A stretch of DNA of 60,074 bases. It comes from Candidatus Thorarchaeota archaeon (GTDB lineage: Archaea > Asgardarchaeota > Thorarchaeia > Thorarchaeales > Thorarchaeaceae). Below are positions 40,835-49,051 of the stretch, one piece after another. The translations under genes and the position numbers were made by a program. Position 1 is the first letter of the stretch. The number at the start of each line of letters is the position of its first letter. Below the pieces are notes generated by a model. It did no database searches, was not told where the DNA came from, and saw nothing but the letters and a program-made list of their open reading frames with translations. The stretch is taken from the NCBI GenBank assembly GCA_048882325.1, contig JBHLRS010000019.1, positions 1 to 60,074 on the forward strand, read 5' to 3'.

Positions 40835-41563
40835 TTGAGGAGAGAGAGCGTGCACCCGCGTATCTTGCAGTTCGTTGGTTTCATTTTGATCATAGTTTCT
40901 ATAGCTATGTCATACATCGTGTATCAGAGTACCATGATGACCGCTGAGTCTGACTTGATAATTTTAATCACCTCCGGATTGGTCGCATGGGCAATCGTCG
41001 CCTTACCAGAATTGGTTCTAGGTCTCTGGCTGCTAGCTAAGGGAACTCGGGAGGCACGCATTGGTGATGTGTCAGGGGATCTCATTCCTCTTGTTCAGAA
41101 AGAGGGTAGAATCAGCGTTGATGATGCCGCACGTGAACTTGGGGTTGAACCTCAGGTTGTTGCAGATGCTGCTGAAAAGTTAGCTAAACGTCGACTCCCC
41201 CTAGTTTATTTAGACCGTCGAGCACATGAGATAGTGAGTCCAAAAGCAGTTTCCTTGAAGGAGAGTCTGCTTCATCTTCTCTATGCTCAAAGGCGAATGA
41301 CCTTTGACCAGATTCAAAAAGTCACCGAGTCCACTGATGAGCAGATAGTAGACGCTCTAAAAGAGCTATCAAAGTCTGGGAAGTTCAGGGGAGTTATTGA
41401 TGAGAACTCGAGGGTTGTGTACACTCAGGAGGCAGTCTCCCAGCTCCCGAAGGCAATAACTGTATGTCCGAATTGTGATGGTAAACTAGACGCACCAATC
41501 TTACCCGGTGAGGAAGAAACCTGTCCATACTGTGGACATATCATCACTAACAGACTGAAGTGA
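40835..41563 (+). CDS. Membrane protein with 2 TM helices, two winged-helix (PCI-like) domains and a C-terminal zinc ribbon
   Basis: GRISVDDAARELGV, MTFDQI...GKFRGVIDENSRVVY, CPNC...CPYCG. Confidence 0.72.
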   Translation: MRRESVHPRILQFVGFILIIVSIAMSYIVYQSTMMTAESDLIILITSGLVAWAIVALPELVLGLWLLAKGTREARIGDVSGDLIPLVQKEGRISVDDAARELGVEPQVVADAAEKLAKRRLPLVYLDRRAHEIVSPKAVSLKESLLHLLYAQRRMTFDQIQKVTESTDEQIVDALKELSKSGKFRGVIDENSRVVYTQEAVSQLPKAITVCPNCDGKLDAPILPGEEETCPYCGHIITNRLK

Positions 41564-41567
41564 CCAC

Positions 41568-42383
41568 TCACACTGCACAAGCGTATGCTACATTACCATT
41601 ATAGTTAGCAACTTGAGCTTCTCGTCGTCCACAGTGCAATTCTGAGAGAAACGAGCTTATCCCCTCGTTGACATCTCGATGAGCCATCTCTCTCTCAGGT
41701 TTCCGAAGTGCCAGGGGTGCGTAACTCTCCTTCAGGATTGAGGTAAAGTCCCTACGGAGTCCCATCTTATCTCCAAAAATCTCCACTCCTTGAACCTCTC
41801 CGCCAATAGAGACGATCTTACCAATCTCGTCATCTGACCATTTGAATCGACTTACATACCTCTCAAATTCGTGACCATACTGAACGTAGAGTTCACCCAA
41901 TGCACTTGTTCCAGACCTTACACCCCACTCTGAGAGAATGCTCTGTACTTTATTCCAAACGTCTTGTTGATTTCTCCCCTGTAGAATGGCTTTGCGCATT
42001 GAGATTGGAGTGTTTGTATGCAGCCATTCTCCATGTGAGTGTTCCCATCTACCTGCTTCAATACAGAACACATTCAGGTTCATATGTCCCTCAACCACAG
42101 TACTCTCTGCAACGATGCGGTCCTGCTTTCCTCCACCAAGCACTCCTTCTCCGCATCGGATTAGTGTTGGCTCTTTAGCGAAGAATCGCAGACTTGGTAC
42201 GTTGCCAGTTTCCTCGACATTCATGTTACCCATTTCAAGAGAAATCTGCGTTGAGACTATTCCATTATAGAATTCTGCACCCTCATCTATCAGCCCAGTA
42301 ACAGCGAGGTTTCCCTGTACCTGTGGCGCAGTCATCTCTGCATTCTCGATGAGCTTCAATACTTGACTTGAAGGTCCACTCAT
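41568..42383 (-). CDS. ARPP-1/DUF6569-family protein
   Basis: VEETGNVPSL, GEGVLGGGKQDRIV, VFCIEAGRW, QQDVW, GVEIFG. Confidence 0.75.
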   Translation of the reverse strand: MSGPSSQVLKLIENAEMTAPQVQGNLAVTGLIDEGAEFYNGIVSTQISLEMGNMNVEETGNVPSLRFFAKEPTLIRCGEGVLGGGKQDRIVAESTVVEGHMNLNVFCIEAGRWEHSHGEWLHTNTPISMRKAILQGRNQQDVWNKVQSILSEWGVRSGTSALGELYVQYGHEFERYVSRFKWSDDEIGKIVSIGGEVQGVEIFGDKMGLRRDFTSILKESYAPLALRKPEREMAHRDVNEGISSFLSELHCGRREAQVANYNGNVAYACAV

Positions 42384-42440: not shown

Positions 42441-43592
42441 TCACTCTAACCGTTCTCTACGAACTTTCCATTTGTCCACAACCGTATCTCCCTTTACTAC
42501 ATGAATGAATTCATAGAGATTTGCGGTAAGGCACGAATGATTTGGTAGAATTCGAACTCTATTACTATGACTGAACTCGATTGGTGTTTTGCTGCTGATT
42601 GCAATCTTCCCGTGTTCTTGAGAGAGTGATTTGATGACTGCATCATCTATTTGGCCTGCATCATAATCTCGGATTATTTTCCCGTAACCAACTTCAGGTT
42701 CAATGTGAGTTGGTCCCATGTCCTTTGATAGTGCTGTGGCACCTGCATCAATGATTACTCTGTCATCATTGGTACTTATGACGCTCGAGAGAACAGTGAG
42801 CGCACAATCAGTCACGCCACACGAACCAAGCGCAACTTGTGTGTAGTCATAGAATACATAGTTGCCCGGTCGAATCTCTGTTATCTCCTCCTGAAACGAA
42901 TCTGTAAGACGTGCAGTCGGTGTTGAACCTATACTAACTACCTCGGGTGCTAGCTCTGAATCTTCTTCTTGCAAAGTCTTGGCAAACCTGACCATCACAT
43001 CCTGCTCCATTTTAGCAATGAGTTTGATCTCCGCAACAGTTGTCGCACTATACGAATGCCCGGCATGTGTTAGTATCCCCTTAAATCTGAGGCTCGAACT
43101 CTCAGCAATCTTCTTGACCAATCTGATGGCTTCAGGAGAGGATGGGTTTACTCCGCATCTTGGGTATCCACAGTCAATTTTCACTAGCACATCGAGAATG
43201 ATATGCTTCTCTTTGCAGAATTCGCCAAGAAATTCAACGGTCGTTGGATGGTCAACGAGTACATTCAGATGTGCCATCTCTGAAATCTTATGAACCCCAT
43301 CGAATTTGTCTGAGGCAATAGGGACTGCATATGTGATGTCTGTGAATCCAGCCTCTGCAAATGCTAACGCCTCACCCAACGTGGAAACCGTAATTCCCTT
43401 TGCCCCGGACTCTAGCTGCTTCTTGCCAATCTCTATACATTTGTGTGTCTTTATGTGAGGTCGCAGATTCACGCCAAACTCTTTTGCCCTCACCGCCATC
43501 TCATTGATGTTTTTCTCTAACCGTTCCAGATCGACCAAAGCTATTGGCGTGACAAGGTCCGTAATCTCTTGCTTAGACAAGTTAGTAACCAC
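42441..43592 (-). CDS. PLP-dependent fold-type III enzyme (D-serine dehydratase DSD1/D-threonine aldolase family)
   Basis: TPIALVD, LRPHIKTHK, HAGHSY, GSTPT, EIRPGNYVFYD, DAGATALSKD, SQEHG, PNHSC. Confidence 0.9.
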   Translation of the reverse strand: MVTNLSKQEITDLVTPIALVDLERLEKNINEMAVRAKEFGVNLRPHIKTHKCIEIGKKQLESGAKGITVSTLGEALAFAEAGFTDITYAVPIASDKFDGVHKISEMAHLNVLVDHPTTVEFLGEFCKEKHIILDVLVKIDCGYPRCGVNPSSPEAIRLVKKIAESSSLRFKGILTHAGHSYSATTVAEIKLIAKMEQDVMVRFAKTLQEEDSELAPEVVSIGSTPTARLTDSFQEEITEIRPGNYVFYDYTQVALGSCGVTDCALTVLSSVISTNDDRVIIDAGATALSKDMGPTHIEPEVGYGKIIRDYDAGQIDDAVIKSLSQEHGKIAISSKTPIEFSHSNRVRILPNHSCLTANLYEFIHVVKGDTVVDKWKVRRERLE

Positions 43593-43597
43593 CCAAA

Positions 43598-45028
43598 CTA
43601 AGTGATGCCATGCTGGCCTCCACGAATTCTCCTTCTGAGGTTCAATCGTGCTTCATCAATCTTTTCGCTGATCCTGTTCTTCTTTGGCCAGTGTTCTTTG
43701 ATCTCTTCAAATCCATGAACGTCCCAGTAAAGTGGACACGCTCCGTAGCAATAGTCAAAGTGTTCACATGCTTTACACCCCTCAGGTGCAAAGTCCTTTG
43801 CTCTCCAGAACTGTGAAGCTCGATTGTACCATACTTGTTCAAAACTCTCAGTGAGTAGATTTCCCACAGGCTCACTAAAACTTGAACAGGGTAAGAGACC
43901 TCCCTCTGCATCCACCGATAGTAGTCCATCACAACAAGCACAACTCTTAGCTCCAAGACCGTGTGCAATTGGGTTGAATAGACAAACAGGGGTTGGTGCA
44001 TACCACACGAACTGAATGCCTTTCTTGTTTGCTCGTTTCTTCACACGCTTTACGATGTCTTTAATCTCGGAATACTTGACTTGGAGTTCATCTCTGAGCT
44101 TGGCTGCGGTTCCTGTATAGATTACCATATTCATACTAAAGTACGTGAGCTTGAGTTCATCAGCATGGAAGTCTACAAGTTCTTCCAACTTGTCAAGGTT
44201 TGGTCTGCAGATAGTAGTGTTGCAGTGTGTATAAATCTCAGTTTCTCGAAGATTCTTGATACCCTGGACTGTCTTTTCGAACGCCCCGGGTATGCCAACG
44301 ATGTAATCATGAGTTTCTGCATCTGGTCCCTCAATAGAAACTTGCGCACTATTCAGTCCTGCATCAACAAGCTTCTGCACATACTCCTTATCATGACAGC
44401 GAATCCCGTTCGTGATGAGGTTGACCCTAAGACCTCTGTTTCTTGCATGGGCAATCAACTCGAAGAGGTCATCGCGAAGGGTTGGTTCTCCTCCTGTAAA
44501 TGACAGACTAGGGACATGAGCATCATCGACTATGATGTCGATTACTCGTTTCACCTCTTCAGTAGTCATCTCTCCTGACTCCCTATAAGGCGAAAAGGCG
44601 TAGCAGAATCTACACTTGTTGTTGCACCTATAGGACAGGGCAATCTCACTGAGAACTGGATATTTGATTTCTCCCTCTCCGAAGGGTACTATCTTTGCTG
44701 TTTTGTAGCTATAGATATTCTGATTTCCTATGGTCATGTTTCGAAGGTCATCAACAAATGCAGCTAAGTCGTTCAGTACTGACTGTTTCTTTCCTCCTGC
44801 CTCGACGAAATAGTTGATAATATCCTCAAGAGGAACATCATCAAGAAGCATCTTGAGCATACGCATACCCGTTTCATTGAGATGCATGGTTTTGTTGGGT
44901 CGCAGTATGAGGAGGTTGTCCTGTGGTCTCACAAAGAAGAAATCTCTCACCTCATCAATGAATGTAGGAACCCATTGAAGCTCCTCCATAGTATAATCAT
45001 ATTGAGGTATAGAGTGAGGTGAGGTCAT
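43598..45028 (-). CDS. Radical SAM/SPASM peptide or protein maturase with N-terminal PqqD/RRE-like domain
   Basis: LLILRPNKTMHLNETG...DLAAFVDDL (RRE-like), CNNKCRFC, FTGGEPTLR, SPASM cysteines CACCDG..PCS..CKACEHFDYCYGAC. Confidence 0.92.
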   Translation of the reverse strand: MTSPHSIPQYDYTMEELQWVPTFIDEVRDFFFVRPQDNLLILRPNKTMHLNETGMRMLKMLLDDVPLEDIINYFVEAGGKKQSVLNDLAAFVDDLRNMTIGNQNIYSYKTAKIVPFGEGEIKYPVLSEIALSYRCNNKCRFCYAFSPYRESGEMTTEEVKRVIDIIVDDAHVPSLSFTGGEPTLRDDLFELIAHARNRGLRVNLITNGIRCHDKEYVQKLVDAGLNSAQVSIEGPDAETHDYIVGIPGAFEKTVQGIKNLRETEIYTHCNTTICRPNLDKLEELVDFHADELKLTYFSMNMVIYTGTAAKLRDELQVKYSEIKDIVKRVKKRANKKGIQFVWYAPTPVCLFNPIAHGLGAKSCACCDGLLSVDAEGGLLPCSSFSEPVGNLLTESFEQVWYNRASQFWRAKDFAPEGCKACEHFDYCYGACPLYWDVHGFEEIKEHWPKKNRISEKIDEARLNLRRRIRGGQHGIT

Positions 45029-45137
45029 TGGTTTCGAGATTTACGCGCACCATCTTAAGGCTTCGGATAGGTGGATTCATGAAAACTGGAAAGCTTATCA
45101 GTCCCCAATCTTGAGATATGAATAACATCGTCGTGGA

Positions 45138-45542
45138 GTGTGTTCGATGAGCACAAGTGAGATAAAATTACCCTACGGTACAATCCAGAAAAAGAAACTA
45201 GTCATGCACTTCAGTGCATATGACATCGACCTGCCAGTCATAGCAGCTGGTATTCGTGAGAGAATGGATGTTCTACGTGAACTAGAAGTGTTTTTTGCTG
45301 GCTTCGGAACGGAAGTGCCTCAGAATGTCACAGAGCAAACACCTGCAGTAATCAAGTGCTTCTTTGAATATGTCGGGAAAGAATCTGACGCAAGCCTCAT
45401 CCTGAAGCGAGTATATCATCTCGTGTGGAATGGCATGATAATGGAATTCCCGGATATTGTTGAGTGGGCAGCAGCAAAGGCTGACCTTTCCAACCTGACC
45501 ATCGCTCAAGCTGATGTTCTTAGAGCACAGCGAGGCGACTAA
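45138..45542 (+). CDS. Hypothetical protein upstream of, and probably co-transcribed with, the Cys-tail membrane protein
   Basis: 134-aa globular-looking ORF, 41 nt upstream of the next gene; start may be ATG 45147. Confidence 0.7.
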   Translation: MCSMSTSEIKLPYGTIQKKKLVMHFSAYDIDLPVIAAGIRERMDVLRELEVFFAGFGTEVPQNVTEQTPAVIKCFFEYVGKESDASLILKRVYHLVWNGMIMEFPDIVEWAAAKADLSNLTIAQADVLRAQRGD

Positions 45543-45583
45543 TCAAATCCTAACAAGAGCGCATTTGACAAGAGGGTCATGAA

Positions 45584-47707
45584 GTGAAAAGAAGCCTGAT
45601 GCTAATACTATTAGTTGGACTGCTGGCACTTACAGCAATTCCCCACTCCAATGCAGATTTCATCACAAGTGCCTATCCAAACCTAGACAGCGTCTATGTT
45701 GATGTTGTTGTGATGCCTAATGGTAGGATCAACGTCACTTATTGGATGACTTTTACTGCAGCTGAAGGAGGCCTTGGAGGATTTGATTTGCTTGGGATTG
45801 AGGAGGAAACTATAGATGACTCTAGTCGCGCATATGCTGAATGGGGTGGGAGTCGGTATGATCTATTGGTCACCACATACTCAAATGGCTATGGACTAGA
45901 CTGGGTTCCCCGAACTCCAGAGGGAGAAGAAGTTTTGGTTGTATTTGGATATTTCAGTACGAACAGGGTTATTGAGAAGACAACATCTGGAATGTATGGT
46001 GATCTTGGAGTCTTCAACTGGGCTCCAGTTCAGTGGGAAATACCAGTTGACTACGAGTCTGTACAGGTAATCTATCCTATTCAAATGAATTCATCATGGA
46101 TTGAGCCAACTCATGGAGTCACTGCAGAAGGTGCTGCGTACGCAGGCTATGTCGTAGATACAAATCAAGGTCTTTGGGATGGTAGTAGCTACACAAACTT
46201 CACAGAAGTAAATCTTCTCGCCTATCCATATAGTGCCTCAGCAGATCCCCGTTACTTCACAGTTAGTCTAGGTCATAACAACATCGTATCCTATGGTCAC
46301 TTTCGCGTTTTCCACTACACCAATTGGAGTTTCTATGAACCTTATCTTGAAGCTGGTGCACTTGGAGTTGATTATGTACCAATAATCAATACAGACGCAA
46401 ATACGCTCTTTGACCTTCAACTAACAGTCTTCAATTATGGTGATGCTAACTTGGAGGATGTGACAATAACAATGTCACTTCCTGAAAACATCACACTTAC
46501 TTCCGGATCCGTGATAACACATGTTGGAACCCTTTCAGGTGGGGAAACGTGGTATGAAACATACTCACTCTTCCCCGCGAACGTGCCTGCTATCCTCACA
46601 ATATCCTTCCAAGTGAGTGCCTCAAATCTGAATGTATCAGACTGGTTGACATTTCAAGTGGATGTTTATATTCAGGAATATATTCCACCATTAATTCCCA
46701 TGAGCACCTTAATTGGTGCATTTGCTATCTTTGTTTCTCTTGGTTTCATCTTCTACGGATATCGCAGAGTGACAAGAACCTATGGTGCAAAATGGGAGGC
46801 TGACGATACAACCTATGTCTACGAGAGTCCTGAGATTGCCATTCAGACCTTTGGAGAACCAGGCACAGTAGCTGAACTGGACCCAATTGAGTCTGCCTTT
46901 TTCATCAATACAACGCGGCAAAAACTTGTATCCATGATCCTCATGTCATGTGTTCGAAAAGGCGCTGTTCGAGTTCTATCAGCTGACCCATTGAAACTCT
47001 CAGTCACAGGATTACAGTTCCAAGATTTAACATATTACGAAGAGATGTTTGTCGCAGCGATAGTCGATGACGAGCTCGATTCTGATAAGATCGATGATAT
47101 GCTTGAGGAGCTAGCGGACAAAGTACAGGAGAAAGCATGGAGTGCTGACTTCGAGGCTACAAAGACCCATCACGATGAAATGGTTGATGGGGCATGGGAA
47201 GAGCTGAAGGCTTATCCTACAGTAGACGATAGAATGGATTACTATTTCAACCGCCAGTATCGCGGTGGTGGCTGGGCCTGGTATTGGCTTTACATGCATC
47301 CGAGGCATGATCATATTGGTGATGTCTTTGACACACCTGGTCCTTCGATAGCGCCACCTCAAGTACCAGATTGGTTCTCTCAACTCTCTGAAGCAACAGG
47401 TCATGCTGTACGTGGTGTTGGGCAAGTTGTCGGTGATGTCGCGACGACTACTGGACAGATTATGACCAATGTAGGGAAGACCATAGGGAGTGTCCTAGAT
47501 GGTGTGGGAAAGATTATCACCGCGCCTCTTAAACCCTTGATAGAGAGCACAAGTAGATGCGTATCTCATGATGCTTGCCACAGCGCGTGTGTTTCTCATG
47601 ATGCATGTCATAGCGCTTGTCACAGTGCCTGTCATAGTGCTTGTGTCTGTCATAGTGCTTGCCACAGTGCTTGTCATAGTGCTTGTGTGTCAGGAGGTTT
47701 TAGGTAG
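45584..47707 (+). CDS. Single-pass membrane protein (DUF2207-like architecture, extra Ig-like domain) with a Cys/His-rich repeat C-terminal tail
   Basis: Signal peptide; VDVVVMPNGRINVTY.MTF and NWAP.QW segments; NYGDANLEDVTI..SLP Ig-like domain; TM LIGAFAIFVSLGFIFYGY; LDPIESA..ILMSCVRKGAV..LTYYEEMF; terminal (CHSA)n. Confidence 0.85.
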   Translation: MKRSLMLILLVGLLALTAIPHSNADFITSAYPNLDSVYVDVVVMPNGRINVTYWMTFTAAEGGLGGFDLLGIEEETIDDSSRAYAEWGGSRYDLLVTTYSNGYGLDWVPRTPEGEEVLVVFGYFSTNRVIEKTTSGMYGDLGVFNWAPVQWEIPVDYESVQVIYPIQMNSSWIEPTHGVTAEGAAYAGYVVDTNQGLWDGSSYTNFTEVNLLAYPYSASADPRYFTVSLGHNNIVSYGHFRVFHYTNWSFYEPYLEAGALGVDYVPIINTDANTLFDLQLTVFNYGDANLEDVTITMSLPENITLTSGSVITHVGTLSGGETWYETYSLFPANVPAILTISFQVSASNLNVSDWLTFQVDVYIQEYIPPLIPMSTLIGAFAIFVSLGFIFYGYRRVTRTYGAKWEADDTTYVYESPEIAIQTFGEPGTVAELDPIESAFFINTTRQKLVSMILMSCVRKGAVRVLSADPLKLSVTGLQFQDLTYYEEMFVAAIVDDELDSDKIDDMLEELADKVQEKAWSADFEATKTHHDEMVDGAWEELKAYPTVDDRMDYYFNRQYRGGGWAWYWLYMHPRHDHIGDVFDTPGPSIAPPQVPDWFSQLSEATGHAVRGVGQVVGDVATTTGQIMTNVGKTIGSVLDGVGKIITAPLKPLIESTSRCVSHDACHSACVSHDACHSACHSACHSACVCHSACHSACHSACVSGGFR
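47558..47704 (+). repeat. Coding tandem repeat CVSHDA/CHSA (7 CHSA units, 11 Cys and 9 His in 49 aa)
   Basis: 12-nt units tgY caY agY gcN with synonymous variation. Confidence 0.95.
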
Positions 47708-47830
47708 AAATCCGACCCATTTGCCACGATTCCCATACTTATGACATTCACATCGAAGAGGCTGGCGTTAAAGCGAGCACATTAAGAGTAAACGCTTTAG
47801 GTCAGCAAATGAGTCTCTGAACTGGTCATA

Positions 47831-49051
47831 ATGAAAGTTGAAGAGAGATTTGTCAAAGTTTGTGGCGAGATTGGCAACTTCACTGAGAAGCTAACAGGGG
47901 TCAATATTGTAGATGCGTATACTGGACCAAAGGAATTTCATCCTAGCAAACAGAGCAAGCACAAATCCCCTGAAGACTTGGTGAATGAAATCCATGGGAC
48001 CTTTGATGCAATGCGTGACGAAGTCAATGATCCCCTTCGCCTTGAATACATGATGGGCGAACTTCATTCTCTGAATGTAGTCGTTGACTGGCTTTCTGGC
48101 AAGGACCTTTCCTATGCAGAATTGGTAGAGGGTCTCTTTCACACACCTCTCGAGAGGTTCCCAGAAGCAGAGATTGACAGGAATATCCAGCTCCTGGAGG
48201 AAAAAATCTCTGATTTCCCTGGAGAGAATCTACGCGACAAAGTTACGCGATTCGGTAAAGAAGGAGAAATCACTGGAGACAAACTACAGCTTCTAATTGA
48301 AACAGAGCTTCAGGAGAAATCCAAAGAGGTCGGGCTGATGTTCAAGGACCAGATCTACGCATCAATGGGAGCCTCAGTGCCTGATAATGGTGTTCAGTAT
48401 GAAGCTGTACGGAACGAACCTTGGAGTGGGTATAACTGGTATAAAGGAGGATTTCAATCCCTGAACCAGTTCAATATCGATGCAAAGTTCAACAAAGACT
48501 CGCTACTGAATGTTGTCTATCATGAGTATGAGCATCATGTTTCCAATCTTTGGCGCGAGAAAGCGTATCTCAATAGTAACAACCTGGAGCTCTCAATTGT
48601 TCTTCTTCACACTGGACGCTGTGTGATATCTGAAGGGACTGCTGACACCGCAAAGGAGTTTCTTAGAGTTATTGATGACAGTCCTAGGATGCAAGTGATG
48701 GATGTTCTCTCTGTGCTGCGGCGCATGGCTGGAATCAATGCTGCGATTATGATGAATGCTGAAGGAGCTTCAGCTGAGGACGCTGTGGAATATATTGTTG
48801 GTCGAGGATTTAGAACACATGAGTCTGCTAAACAGTCTATCAATTTCATCTCACCAAAAACAGCGGATGGGCGGATAAACTTCTTCTCACCATATATCTA
48901 CACCTACTATAAGGGTAGAACTGACTATGTACTTCCACAGTATAATAAGGCAGTCGAGAAGGACGCGTTGCCCGAGTTCTTCAAGGCAGTCTATATGAAT
49001 CCATATTCAGGTTCAAGTGTAACGTGGAACAAAGCGTTCAATTGGTTGTAG
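47831..49051 (+). CDS. DUF885-like putative zinc metallopeptidase
   Basis: EPWSGYNWYKGG, HEYEH (HExxH), downstream ISEGTA. Confidence 0.65.
   Translation: MKVEERFVKVCGEIGNFTEKLTGVNIVDAYTGPKEFHPSKQSKHKSPEDLVNEIHGTFDAMRDEVNDPLRLEYMMGELHSLNVVVDWLSGKDLSYAELVEGLFHTPLERFPEAEIDRNIQLLEEKISDFPGENLRDKVTRFGKEGEITGDKLQLLIETELQEKSKEVGLMFKDQIYASMGASVPDNGVQYEAVRNEPWSGYNWYKGGFQSLNQFNIDAKFNKDSLLNVVYHEYEHHVSNLWREKAYLNSNNLELSIVLLHTGRCVISEGTADTAKEFLRVIDDSPRMQVMDVLSVLRRMAGINAAIMMNAEGASAEDAVEYIVGRGFRTHESAKQSINFISPKTADGRINFFSPYIYTYYKGRTDYVLPQYNKAVEKDALPEFFKAVYMNPYSGSSVTWNKAFNWL

Follow-up and report, generated by a model that had tools for sequence, protein, structure and literature searches.

The window, by which we mean the whole analyzed stretch of 60,074 nucleotides, belongs to a contig (JBHLRS010000019.1) from the 3.6 Mb genome of a Thorarchaeota archaeon of the Asgard group. 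The locus examined here (43598–49051) encodes an enzyme that joins a RiPP recognition element (RRE; RiPP, a peptide that is made on the ribosome and then modified post-translationally) to a radical S-adenosylmethionine (SAM) domain and a SPASM domain, next to a large membrane protein that ends in a cysteine- and histidine-rich repeat. A first reading of the letters (the original prediction) had proposed that this tail is the substrate of the enzyme. An open reading frame (ORF) map of the locus confirmed the coordinates of its four ORFs (Table 1). The small divergent gene had been described as a 134-residue ORF separated by 109 bp from the enzyme gene. This ORF is indeed open from a GTG codon at 45138, but since the orthologues point to the ATG at 45147 as the real start, we assign it 131 residues and an intergenic distance of 118 bp. 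The intergenic DNA (45029–45146) contains no conserved short ORF, so that no leader–core precursor gene was found there, in agreement with the earlier remark that the locus lacks a short free-standing precursor.

Table 1. Genes and features at the locus. Residue numbers refer to the encoded proteins.
Feature	Position	Strand	Remarks and basis
RRE/radical SAM/SPASM enzyme	43598..45028	-	476 aa; Pfam, AlphaFold2, Foldseek
N-terminal RRE, PqqD-like winged helix, residues ~17–99	44732..44980	-	AlphaFold2; PqqD matches in relatives
CxxxCxxC radical SAM cluster motif, C135/C139/C142	44603..44626	-	30-sequence alignment
SPASM auxiliary-cluster cysteines: C349, C363-x12-G376-x4-C381, C418-x2-C421-x5-C427-x3-C431	43736..43984	-	30-sequence alignment
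Intergenic region from which the enzyme gene and the operon of the small gene and the tail protein diverge	45029..45146	.	ORF map
131-aa protein, Thor-family-specific module member	45147..45542	+	ORF also open from GTG at 45138
707-aa single-pass membrane protein ending in the Cys/His tail	45584..47707	+	
49-residue Cys/His tail, residues 659–707, proposed enzyme substrate	47558..47704	+	
406-aa HEYEH protein, lineage-specific neighbor, not core	47831..49051	+	
Pyridoxal phosphate (PLP) enzyme (Ala_racemase_N and D-serine dehydratase domain)	42441..43592	-	5 bp from the enzyme gene, on its downstream side; Pfam scores 90 and 73 bits

The enzyme has the architecture of RRE-dependent RiPP maturases, the class that includes CteB, SkfB, SuiB, and PapB. 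Pfam profiles recognize its radical SAM domain with 101 bits and its SPASM domain with 25.4 bits (cut-off 21.5). The PqqD profile gave a mixed result, scoring 22.9 bits with the window enzyme, slightly below the cut-off of 23.4, but matching 17 of 30 family members with a best E value of 1.1e-9. An AlphaFold2 model based on the alignment of 30 sequences (pLDDT, the score of the predicted local distance difference test, 87.8) contains a β3–α3 RRE fold at residues 32–99, composed of the strands 32–34, 39–43, and 46–49 and the helices 52–62, 67–76, and 81–99, with L50 and N51 almost invariant in the alignment. The three cysteines of the radical SAM motif are conserved in 30 of 30 aligned homologues, and both SPASM motifs (C363...C381 and C418...C431) as well as C349 were found in the enzyme. 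These observations bear out the assignment of a CxxxCxxC radical SAM enzyme with an N-terminal PqqD/RRE-like domain. In Foldseek searches the best full-length matches to the model are SuiB, SkfB, and CteB, the sulfatase-maturating enzyme anSME is also among the top folds, and the epimerase EpeE is among the matches; the alignment with SuiB extends over 454–466 columns and includes the N-terminal domain. The enzyme does not reach the cut-off of any NCBIfam equivalog. It scores 89.7 bits with the PapB family (NF047865, cut-off 340), 44.1 bits with the CrpC family (TIGR04463, rSAM_vs_C_rich, cut-off 525), where the match covers the radical SAM core only, 28.3 bits with the CXXX-repeat maturases (TIGR04115, cut-off 350), and 99 bits with the ACGX-repeat family (TIGR04340, cut-off 400).

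The 707-residue protein was modeled by AlphaFold2 as a signal-like helix (residues 1–24), a β-rich ectodomain (28–367, confidently predicted over 33–364), a transmembrane (TM) helix (373–399) followed by the residues RRVTR, and a cytoplasmic part (400–646) with a winged-helix plus helical domain (434–605) and an amphipathic helix (619–644). Because the signal-like helix is followed by one TM helix with RRVTR behind it, the C-terminus faces the cytoplasm. In homologues from all lineages the signal peptide is followed by either one or three TM helices, and since this number is always odd, the tail is cytoplasmic in each of them, which agrees with the original prediction that it faces the compartment in which the enzyme acts. 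The tail itself agrees with the earlier description of a 49-residue Cys/His repeat; 11 of its residues are cysteines and 9 are histidines. Made up of two CVSHDA units, CHSA units, and a terminal CVSGGFR, it has pLDDT values below 45 in the model. The DNA copies of the repeat are only 61–82% alike, and the tail is therefore not a fresh product of slippage. Within the 3.6 Mb genome the (CHxA)2C coding pattern is unique to this tail, and a reversed control pattern gave 0 matches.

The membrane protein has no match in Pfam, including the two DUF2207 families (PF09972/PF20990). The closest comparison is with DUF2207 proteins and, at the level of the fold, with Ost1/ribophorin I, where the putative common features would be a luminal β-sandwich, one TM helix, and a cytosolic helical part. 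Two homologues from Clostridia score 17.5–18.7 bits with DUF2207 against a cut-off of 24.4, and language-model features of the window protein score 0.95 and 0.88 to DUF2207 clusters, while the fold matches to such clusters are weak (TM-score ~0.3 in the ESM Atlas, a search for which the whole 707-residue model is too long). Classical DUF2207 tails are Gly-rich and are not known to contain Cys repeats or to be linked to radical SAM enzymes. Among tail proteins and enzymes from eight bacterial and archaeal lineages, none reached a curated Pfam or NCBIfam family.

To follow the enzyme through the Asgard archaea, we searched 400 genomes with a clade threshold of E at most 1e-45. Members were found in 141 of these genomes and in 37 of 85 genera, and we examined 60 neighborhoods. 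In 51 of them a homologous Cys-tailed protein adjoins the enzyme, and all Asgard tail proteins form one BLAST cluster. The two genes occur in four orders, often with overlapping stop and start codons: divergent with the 131-residue protein gene in between (the Thor family, f1), tail gene before enzyme gene and often overlapping it (four families), enzyme gene before tail gene (one family), or separated by a membrane-protein gene (two families). The kind of tail changes with the distance of the enzyme. Four families with enzymes 42–47% identical to that of the window carry (CH[SNAG]A)n tails that end in VSGGH, GGWG, GGGH, or GGGW, while enzymes with 30–35% identity are accompanied by tails of the form GG(CA)n[G](CA)nGGGR. 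The Thorarchaeota (CHSA)n tail is one variant of a much wider system in which the latter form is commoner.

The presence and absence of the two genes in the 86 genomes of the Thor family is largely concordant. Both were found in 58 genomes and neither in 19, six of which are at least 91% complete; the remaining 9 are discordant and mostly represent fragmented or low-completeness assemblies. The one discordant case inspected, an apparent exception with a tail protein but no enzyme on a "single contig" (G370), was rejected, because this scaffold contains 100-N gaps that cut the gene. Since the two genes are adjacent, their joint loss is weak evidence when taken alone.

The search in the opposite direction started from the tail. 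A scan that took one genome from each GTDB species and looked for DNA that encodes (CA)4GGG gave matches in at least 120 stretches from many phyla. Among the matches listed, bacteria are represented by Bacillota (Lachnospiraceae, Oscillospiraceae, Gemmiger), Chloroflexota, Planctomycetota, Myxococcota, Zixibacteria, and Hydrogenedentota, and archaea by Methanomassiliicoccales, other Thermoplasmatota, Methanocella, and Heimdallarchaeota. In the same set of listed matches, 56 of 78 loci with a tail ORF encode a homologue of the window enzyme, always on the same strand and, in 52 of these 56, within 300 nt of the tail ORF. Nearly all of the other 22 loci have a tail ORF that is cut by, or lies near, the edge of the stretch. 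Where the tail ORF is complete and at least 1.5 kb is visible on both sides, the enzyme was present without exception (26 of 26 listed loci). The association of this radical SAM enzyme with Cys-tailed proteins, which the original prediction suggested checking by co-occurrence, holds therefore in both directions of search. What did not hold is the description as an archaeal system, as the enzyme/tail pair spans both prokaryotic domains. Literature searches found no published description of this pair and it has no curated one, although it appears repeatedly in Asgard archaea, in further archaea, and in many bacteria that live anaerobically.

Some of these systems deviate in form. In the Bacillota the (CA)n block lies inside the protein, with GGGRAGCS.KDFY and approximately 20–40 further residues behind it. 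Bacillota-form enzymes (L076:3697-5088, L084:4209-5597) have lost the CX2CX5CX3C part of the SPASM motif. Two radical SAM/SPASM paralogues lie beside one tail gene at some loci (L014 in G025, L051 in G176, L129, L121, and L099), where the second paralogue shares only 20–29% identity with the window enzyme. Closer to the window, one tail-protein orthologue from the same genus (G018:C156:2507-4621, L032) contains an in-frame TAG codon, which may be a sequencing error or may mark a pseudogene.

The sequence of the tail is under unusual constraint. We compared 25 Thor-family orthologues, the bodies of which are 55–84% identical to the window protein, and found four tail variants among them. In pairwise comparisons, 55% of the tail codons differ synonymously and 0.6% non-synonymously, while among the 40 codons directly before the tail 28% differ non-synonymously. 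This contrast between synonymous and non-synonymous change indicates that both the identity of the residues and the number of repeats are under very strong selection. The enzymes follow the tails: in a tree obtained by a quick maximum-likelihood search of 30 sequences, the partners of CHxA tails group together on a long stem (Shimodaira–Hasegawa-like approximate likelihood ratio test, SH-aLRT, 100) and the partners of (CA)n...AGCS tails make up a second clade (SH-aLRT 99), so that enzyme clades track tail type.

From these comparisons, the Cys-repeat tail probably is the substrate of the enzyme, as the original prediction had suggested. We base this assignment on the RiPP-maturase architecture of the enzyme, on the fact that the tail is the sole Cys-rich candidate, on its location on the enzyme's side of the membrane, and on the pairing seen in both search directions across two domains. 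Two outcomes that the original prediction had named as refuting it did not occur: close and distant homologues of the enzyme are overwhelmingly found with Cys-tailed proteins, and no separate short precursor emerged from the intergenic DNA. As to the chemistry, and provided that the tail is the substrate, thioether formation would be the likeliest outcome, although we would give it only about an even chance. This preference follows from the analogy with CteB, PapB, and CrpC, and from the observation that Cys with a neighboring Ala is the one element that all tail types share. Most likely the product is kept on the membrane protein instead of being cleaved off, because the protein body is conserved in its own right and because the pair is accompanied by neither a protease nor an exporter that is conserved across the lineages examined. 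Taken together, we favor with some reserve the reading that the 476-residue protein is an RRE-guided radical SAM/SPASM maturase that modifies the tail of the 707-residue protein in place, most likely with thioether cross-links.

In such a reaction the RRE would dock either on part of the cytoplasmic domain or on the amphipathic segment directly before the repeats. The radical SAM site would then abstract hydrogen from acceptor carbons, to which the tail cysteines would be joined through thioethers, as sactionine- or ranthionine-type cross-links. The product would remain part of the membrane protein as a rigid and precisely patterned cross-linked module, not as a released peptide.

The closest characterized analogue is the CrpC/CrpA pair from Methanococcus voltae. 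CrpC is an RRE-rSAM-SPASM enzyme that was shown by experiment to install thioethers (ranthionine) in the C-terminal Cys repeats of CrpA, a soluble protein of 28.8 kDa that has a leader-like segment at its N-terminus and C-x-x-Q/D repeats of 17 residues each (Dieter et al. 2026, PMC13692751). Both systems combine an RRE/radical SAM/SPASM enzyme with C-terminal Cys repeats of an adjacent full-size protein, and the product of the CrpA reaction is a modified protein, not a peptide. The difference is that the substrate proposed here is a C-x3 repeat, 49 residues long, that forms the cytoplasmic end of a 707-residue membrane protein. The same study cites QhpD/QhpC of quinohemoprotein amine dehydrogenase as a precedent (PMC13692751). 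QhpD is likewise a radical SAM/SPASM enzyme, and the subunit in which it forms thioethers at Cys remains a functional protein, but by description QhpC is set apart as a small subunit of the periplasm that has three links to Asp/Glu and involves neither a repeat nor a membrane protein.

The ranthipeptide and sactipeptide maturases CteB (for SCIFF), PapB (for freyrasin), and SkfB have the same domain order as the window enzyme, and full-length structural matches were found (5WHY, 6EFN). Their substrates, however, are free peptides of ~45–60 residues with leaders, whereas no leader–core gene was found here. PapB uses the C-x3-D spacing of the CSANDA repeats in freyrasin, and the CVSHDA units of the tail share this spacing. 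The closest curated systems, CXXX-repeat (TIGR04115/TIGR04117) and ACGX-repeat (TIGR04340), also pair a short-period Cys repeat with an rSAM/SPASM enzyme, but both are uncharacterized in silico NCBIfam systems with small free-standing targets. The window tail does not match TIGR04117 (target cut-off 50 bits), and a related Asgard protein (G159), which has a (CHxA)n tail, scores 31.3 bits against the same cut-off.

Several observations weigh against tail cross-linking by this enzyme. The (CA)n tails offer no obvious acceptor except Ala or Gly, and the conserved His of the CHxA tails would be equally suited to metal binding. The original prediction had credited the enzyme with a full SPASM cysteine set; all of the motifs listed in Table 1 are in place, but the position aligned with the most distal canonical Cys, which (CA)n-type homologues carry, has no Cys in the CHxA-associated clade. 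The top partial NCBIfam scores of the enzyme belong to cofactor enzymes (AhbD, NirJ2, PqqE), not to thioether synthases. Two Asgard families, f12 and f27, are real exceptions to the pairing, as they keep the enzyme together with a methyltransferase and have no tail gene nearby; three f12 genomes (78–89% complete) contain no (CA)4 motif anywhere, and in one f27 genome the tail protein is encoded on another contig. As for the covariation, the tail-type labels are common to kin on the enzyme tree, itself a quick search of 30 rows, and adjacent genes are lost jointly whether they are functionally linked or not.

An alternative function for the tail would be that of a Cys/His module that binds a metal ion or an iron–sulfur cluster, with the enzyme building or inserting the cluster, or using the tail as a donor of sulfur or of a cluster, without making cross-links. 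We consider this unlikely, even though a good number of features fit it. The tail has eleven Cys and nine His in 49 residues, the His is conserved in the C-H-[SNAG]-A units across Asgard families, an alternating (CA)n sequence would place all thiols on one face of a strand, and the absence of the last SPASM Cys in the clade would leave an open cluster site. For CrpA, too, the authors suspect a metal-related role (PMC13692751). What speaks against a metal module is that RRE and SPASM domains together make up a peptide-modifying architecture. Furthermore, the repeat number is fixed here, whereas in known metallochaperones, to our knowledge, the tails that bind metal are free to vary both in length and in sequence. 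The two roles do not exclude each other, as a cross-linked tail could still bind metal.

The enzyme may also apply another kind of radical chemistry to the tail, for example conversion of Cys to formylglycine or a thioaldehyde, dehydrogenation, epimerization, C–C cyclophane formation at His in the H-S-A triads, or attachment of a lipid to Cys, in many lineages with methylation as the next step. The structural matches to anSME and EpeE and the poor quality of (CA)n sequences as classical acceptors are consistent with this idea. So is the class I SAM methyltransferase (Methyltransf_11/25, E values down to 2e-21) that archaeal and bacterial (CA)n-type systems encode beside the enzyme gene or the tail gene (for example L015:5777-6535, L016:8144-8848, L040, L052, and L078:5656-6414), and that hints at a second step. 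Encoded at 23 Asgard loci and, among the GTDB matches listed, at 17 loci, it is commonly the third conserved gene in the (CA)n...GGGR lineages; Thor-family loci have no methyltransferase beside the pair. On the other hand, Cys with its neighboring Ala is the sole residue shared by all tail types, and the RRE–SPASM enzymes we know to act on Cys-repeat substrates (CteB and PapB, and CrpC according to PMC13692751) yield thioethers. We judge a different radical chemistry to be improbable on the whole, and two of its versions were set aside: a His cyclophane as the shared chemistry, given that (CA)n tails contain no aromatic residue, and an anSME-type formylglycine target, since the tail has no sulfatase-type C-x-[PA]-x-R motif.

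More doubtful still is the possibility, also raised in the original prediction, that the system is a true RiPP pathway in which the modified tail is cut off and released as a peptide, with the 650-residue body serving as an oversized leader. Leader removal would be normal in RiPP logic, and in Thorarchaeota the HExxH protein could act as the protease, as its gene begins 124 bp downstream of the tail gene. The HEYEH sequence is present as predicted, but the 406-residue protein looks DUF885-like by language-model features only (score 0.96 to a "putative DUF885" cluster); it has no Pfam match and nothing meaningful among PDB sequences. Its gene is limited to Thor-family loci, and in some of these other genes intervene before the tail gene. 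Comparison thus lends no support to proteolytic release. Neither a protease nor an exporter is conserved across lineages, the tail is cytoplasmic, and the body with its ectodomain, TM segment, and winged-helix domain is conserved across both domains and so has its own function. In-place modification of the tail is favored over release. Finally, we regard it as very improbable that the enzyme acts on another substrate (a lipid, a cofactor, or a distant peptide) and is adjacent to the tail gene only through a shared membrane-associated process, as f12 and f27 and the best partial NCBIfam scores (AhbD, NirJ2, PqqE, and Tes-like families) might suggest, because the enzyme is present at all 26 loci reached from the tail that are complete with both flanks visible among the matches listed, the pair is kept in four gene orders with often overlapping stop and start codons, the enzyme clades follow tail type, and the enzyme has an RRE.

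Returning to in-place modification, we note that the pair most likely marks an uncharacterized chemical modification on the tail of a whole protein. A bolder proposal, which we offer as tentative and consider less likely than not, is that of an ancient protein-tail system common to both domains, in which a radical SAM/SPASM enzyme, often together with a methyltransferase, would make of a genetically fixed Cys repeat either a "ladder" of covalent thioethers or a module for metal wiring, located at the cytoplasmic end of a DUF2207-like, Ost1/ribophorin-I-like membrane protein. In a (CA)3G(CA)4 tail, a hairpin at the central Gly would put each Cys opposite an Ala. If this proposal is correct, anaerobes would carry a new permanent post-translational structure on a membrane protein, through which the domain outside the cell is possibly coupled to a cytoplasmic element that senses redox state or metal.

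Nearly all known cases of radical SAM/SPASM cross-linking concern small secreted peptides, and the first one on a full-size archaeal protein was published in 2026. The present comparison ties this radical SAM/SPASM enzyme type, in both search directions, to the cytoplasmic tail of a family of large, conserved membrane proteins that occurs in Asgard archaea, Thermoplasmatota, methanogens, and many anaerobic bacteria including gut Clostridia. This tail is among the most constrained of sequences. As its residues and repeat number are nearly fixed across the whole archaeal family, it must form something precise. Should the proposed chemistry be true, these tails would represent a new substrate class for RiPP-like enzymes and would give a first functional handle on DUF2207-like proteins. 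The system would also be directly testable, since cultured carriers exist, such as Gemmiger formicilis ATCC 27749.

Two of the genes around the pair, those for the 131-residue protein and for the HEYEH protein, are Thor-specific neighbors and not core parts. The 131-residue protein is encoded between enzyme and tail protein in all 24 Thor-family loci in which it was clustered. It occurs in 57 of the 400 Asgard genomes, all of family f1, and has no match in Pfam, NCBIfam, or PDB, including a search of its profile against PDB sequences. The PLP enzyme gene was considered as a further member of the module and set aside, because it is syntenic in the Thor family only and is split from the enzyme gene by other genes in two Thor-family loci. 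Its nearest NCBIfam match is 3-hydroxy-D-aspartate aldolase, with 141 bits far under the cut-off. Further downstream, on the strand that carries the enzyme and PLP genes, positions 41568–42383 encode a protein with an ARPP-1 domain (PF20208, E value 9e-39). In (CA)n-type Asgard loci, the tail gene often has in front of it a gene for a small two-TM protein that carries a CxxC...CxxC zinc ribbon at its C-terminus (L052:3521-3907, L038:4667-5077, L014:2838-3218). The window encodes a syntenic 242-residue protein with two TM helices, winged helices, and a zinc ribbon at 40835–41563, about 2 kb beyond the enzyme gene.

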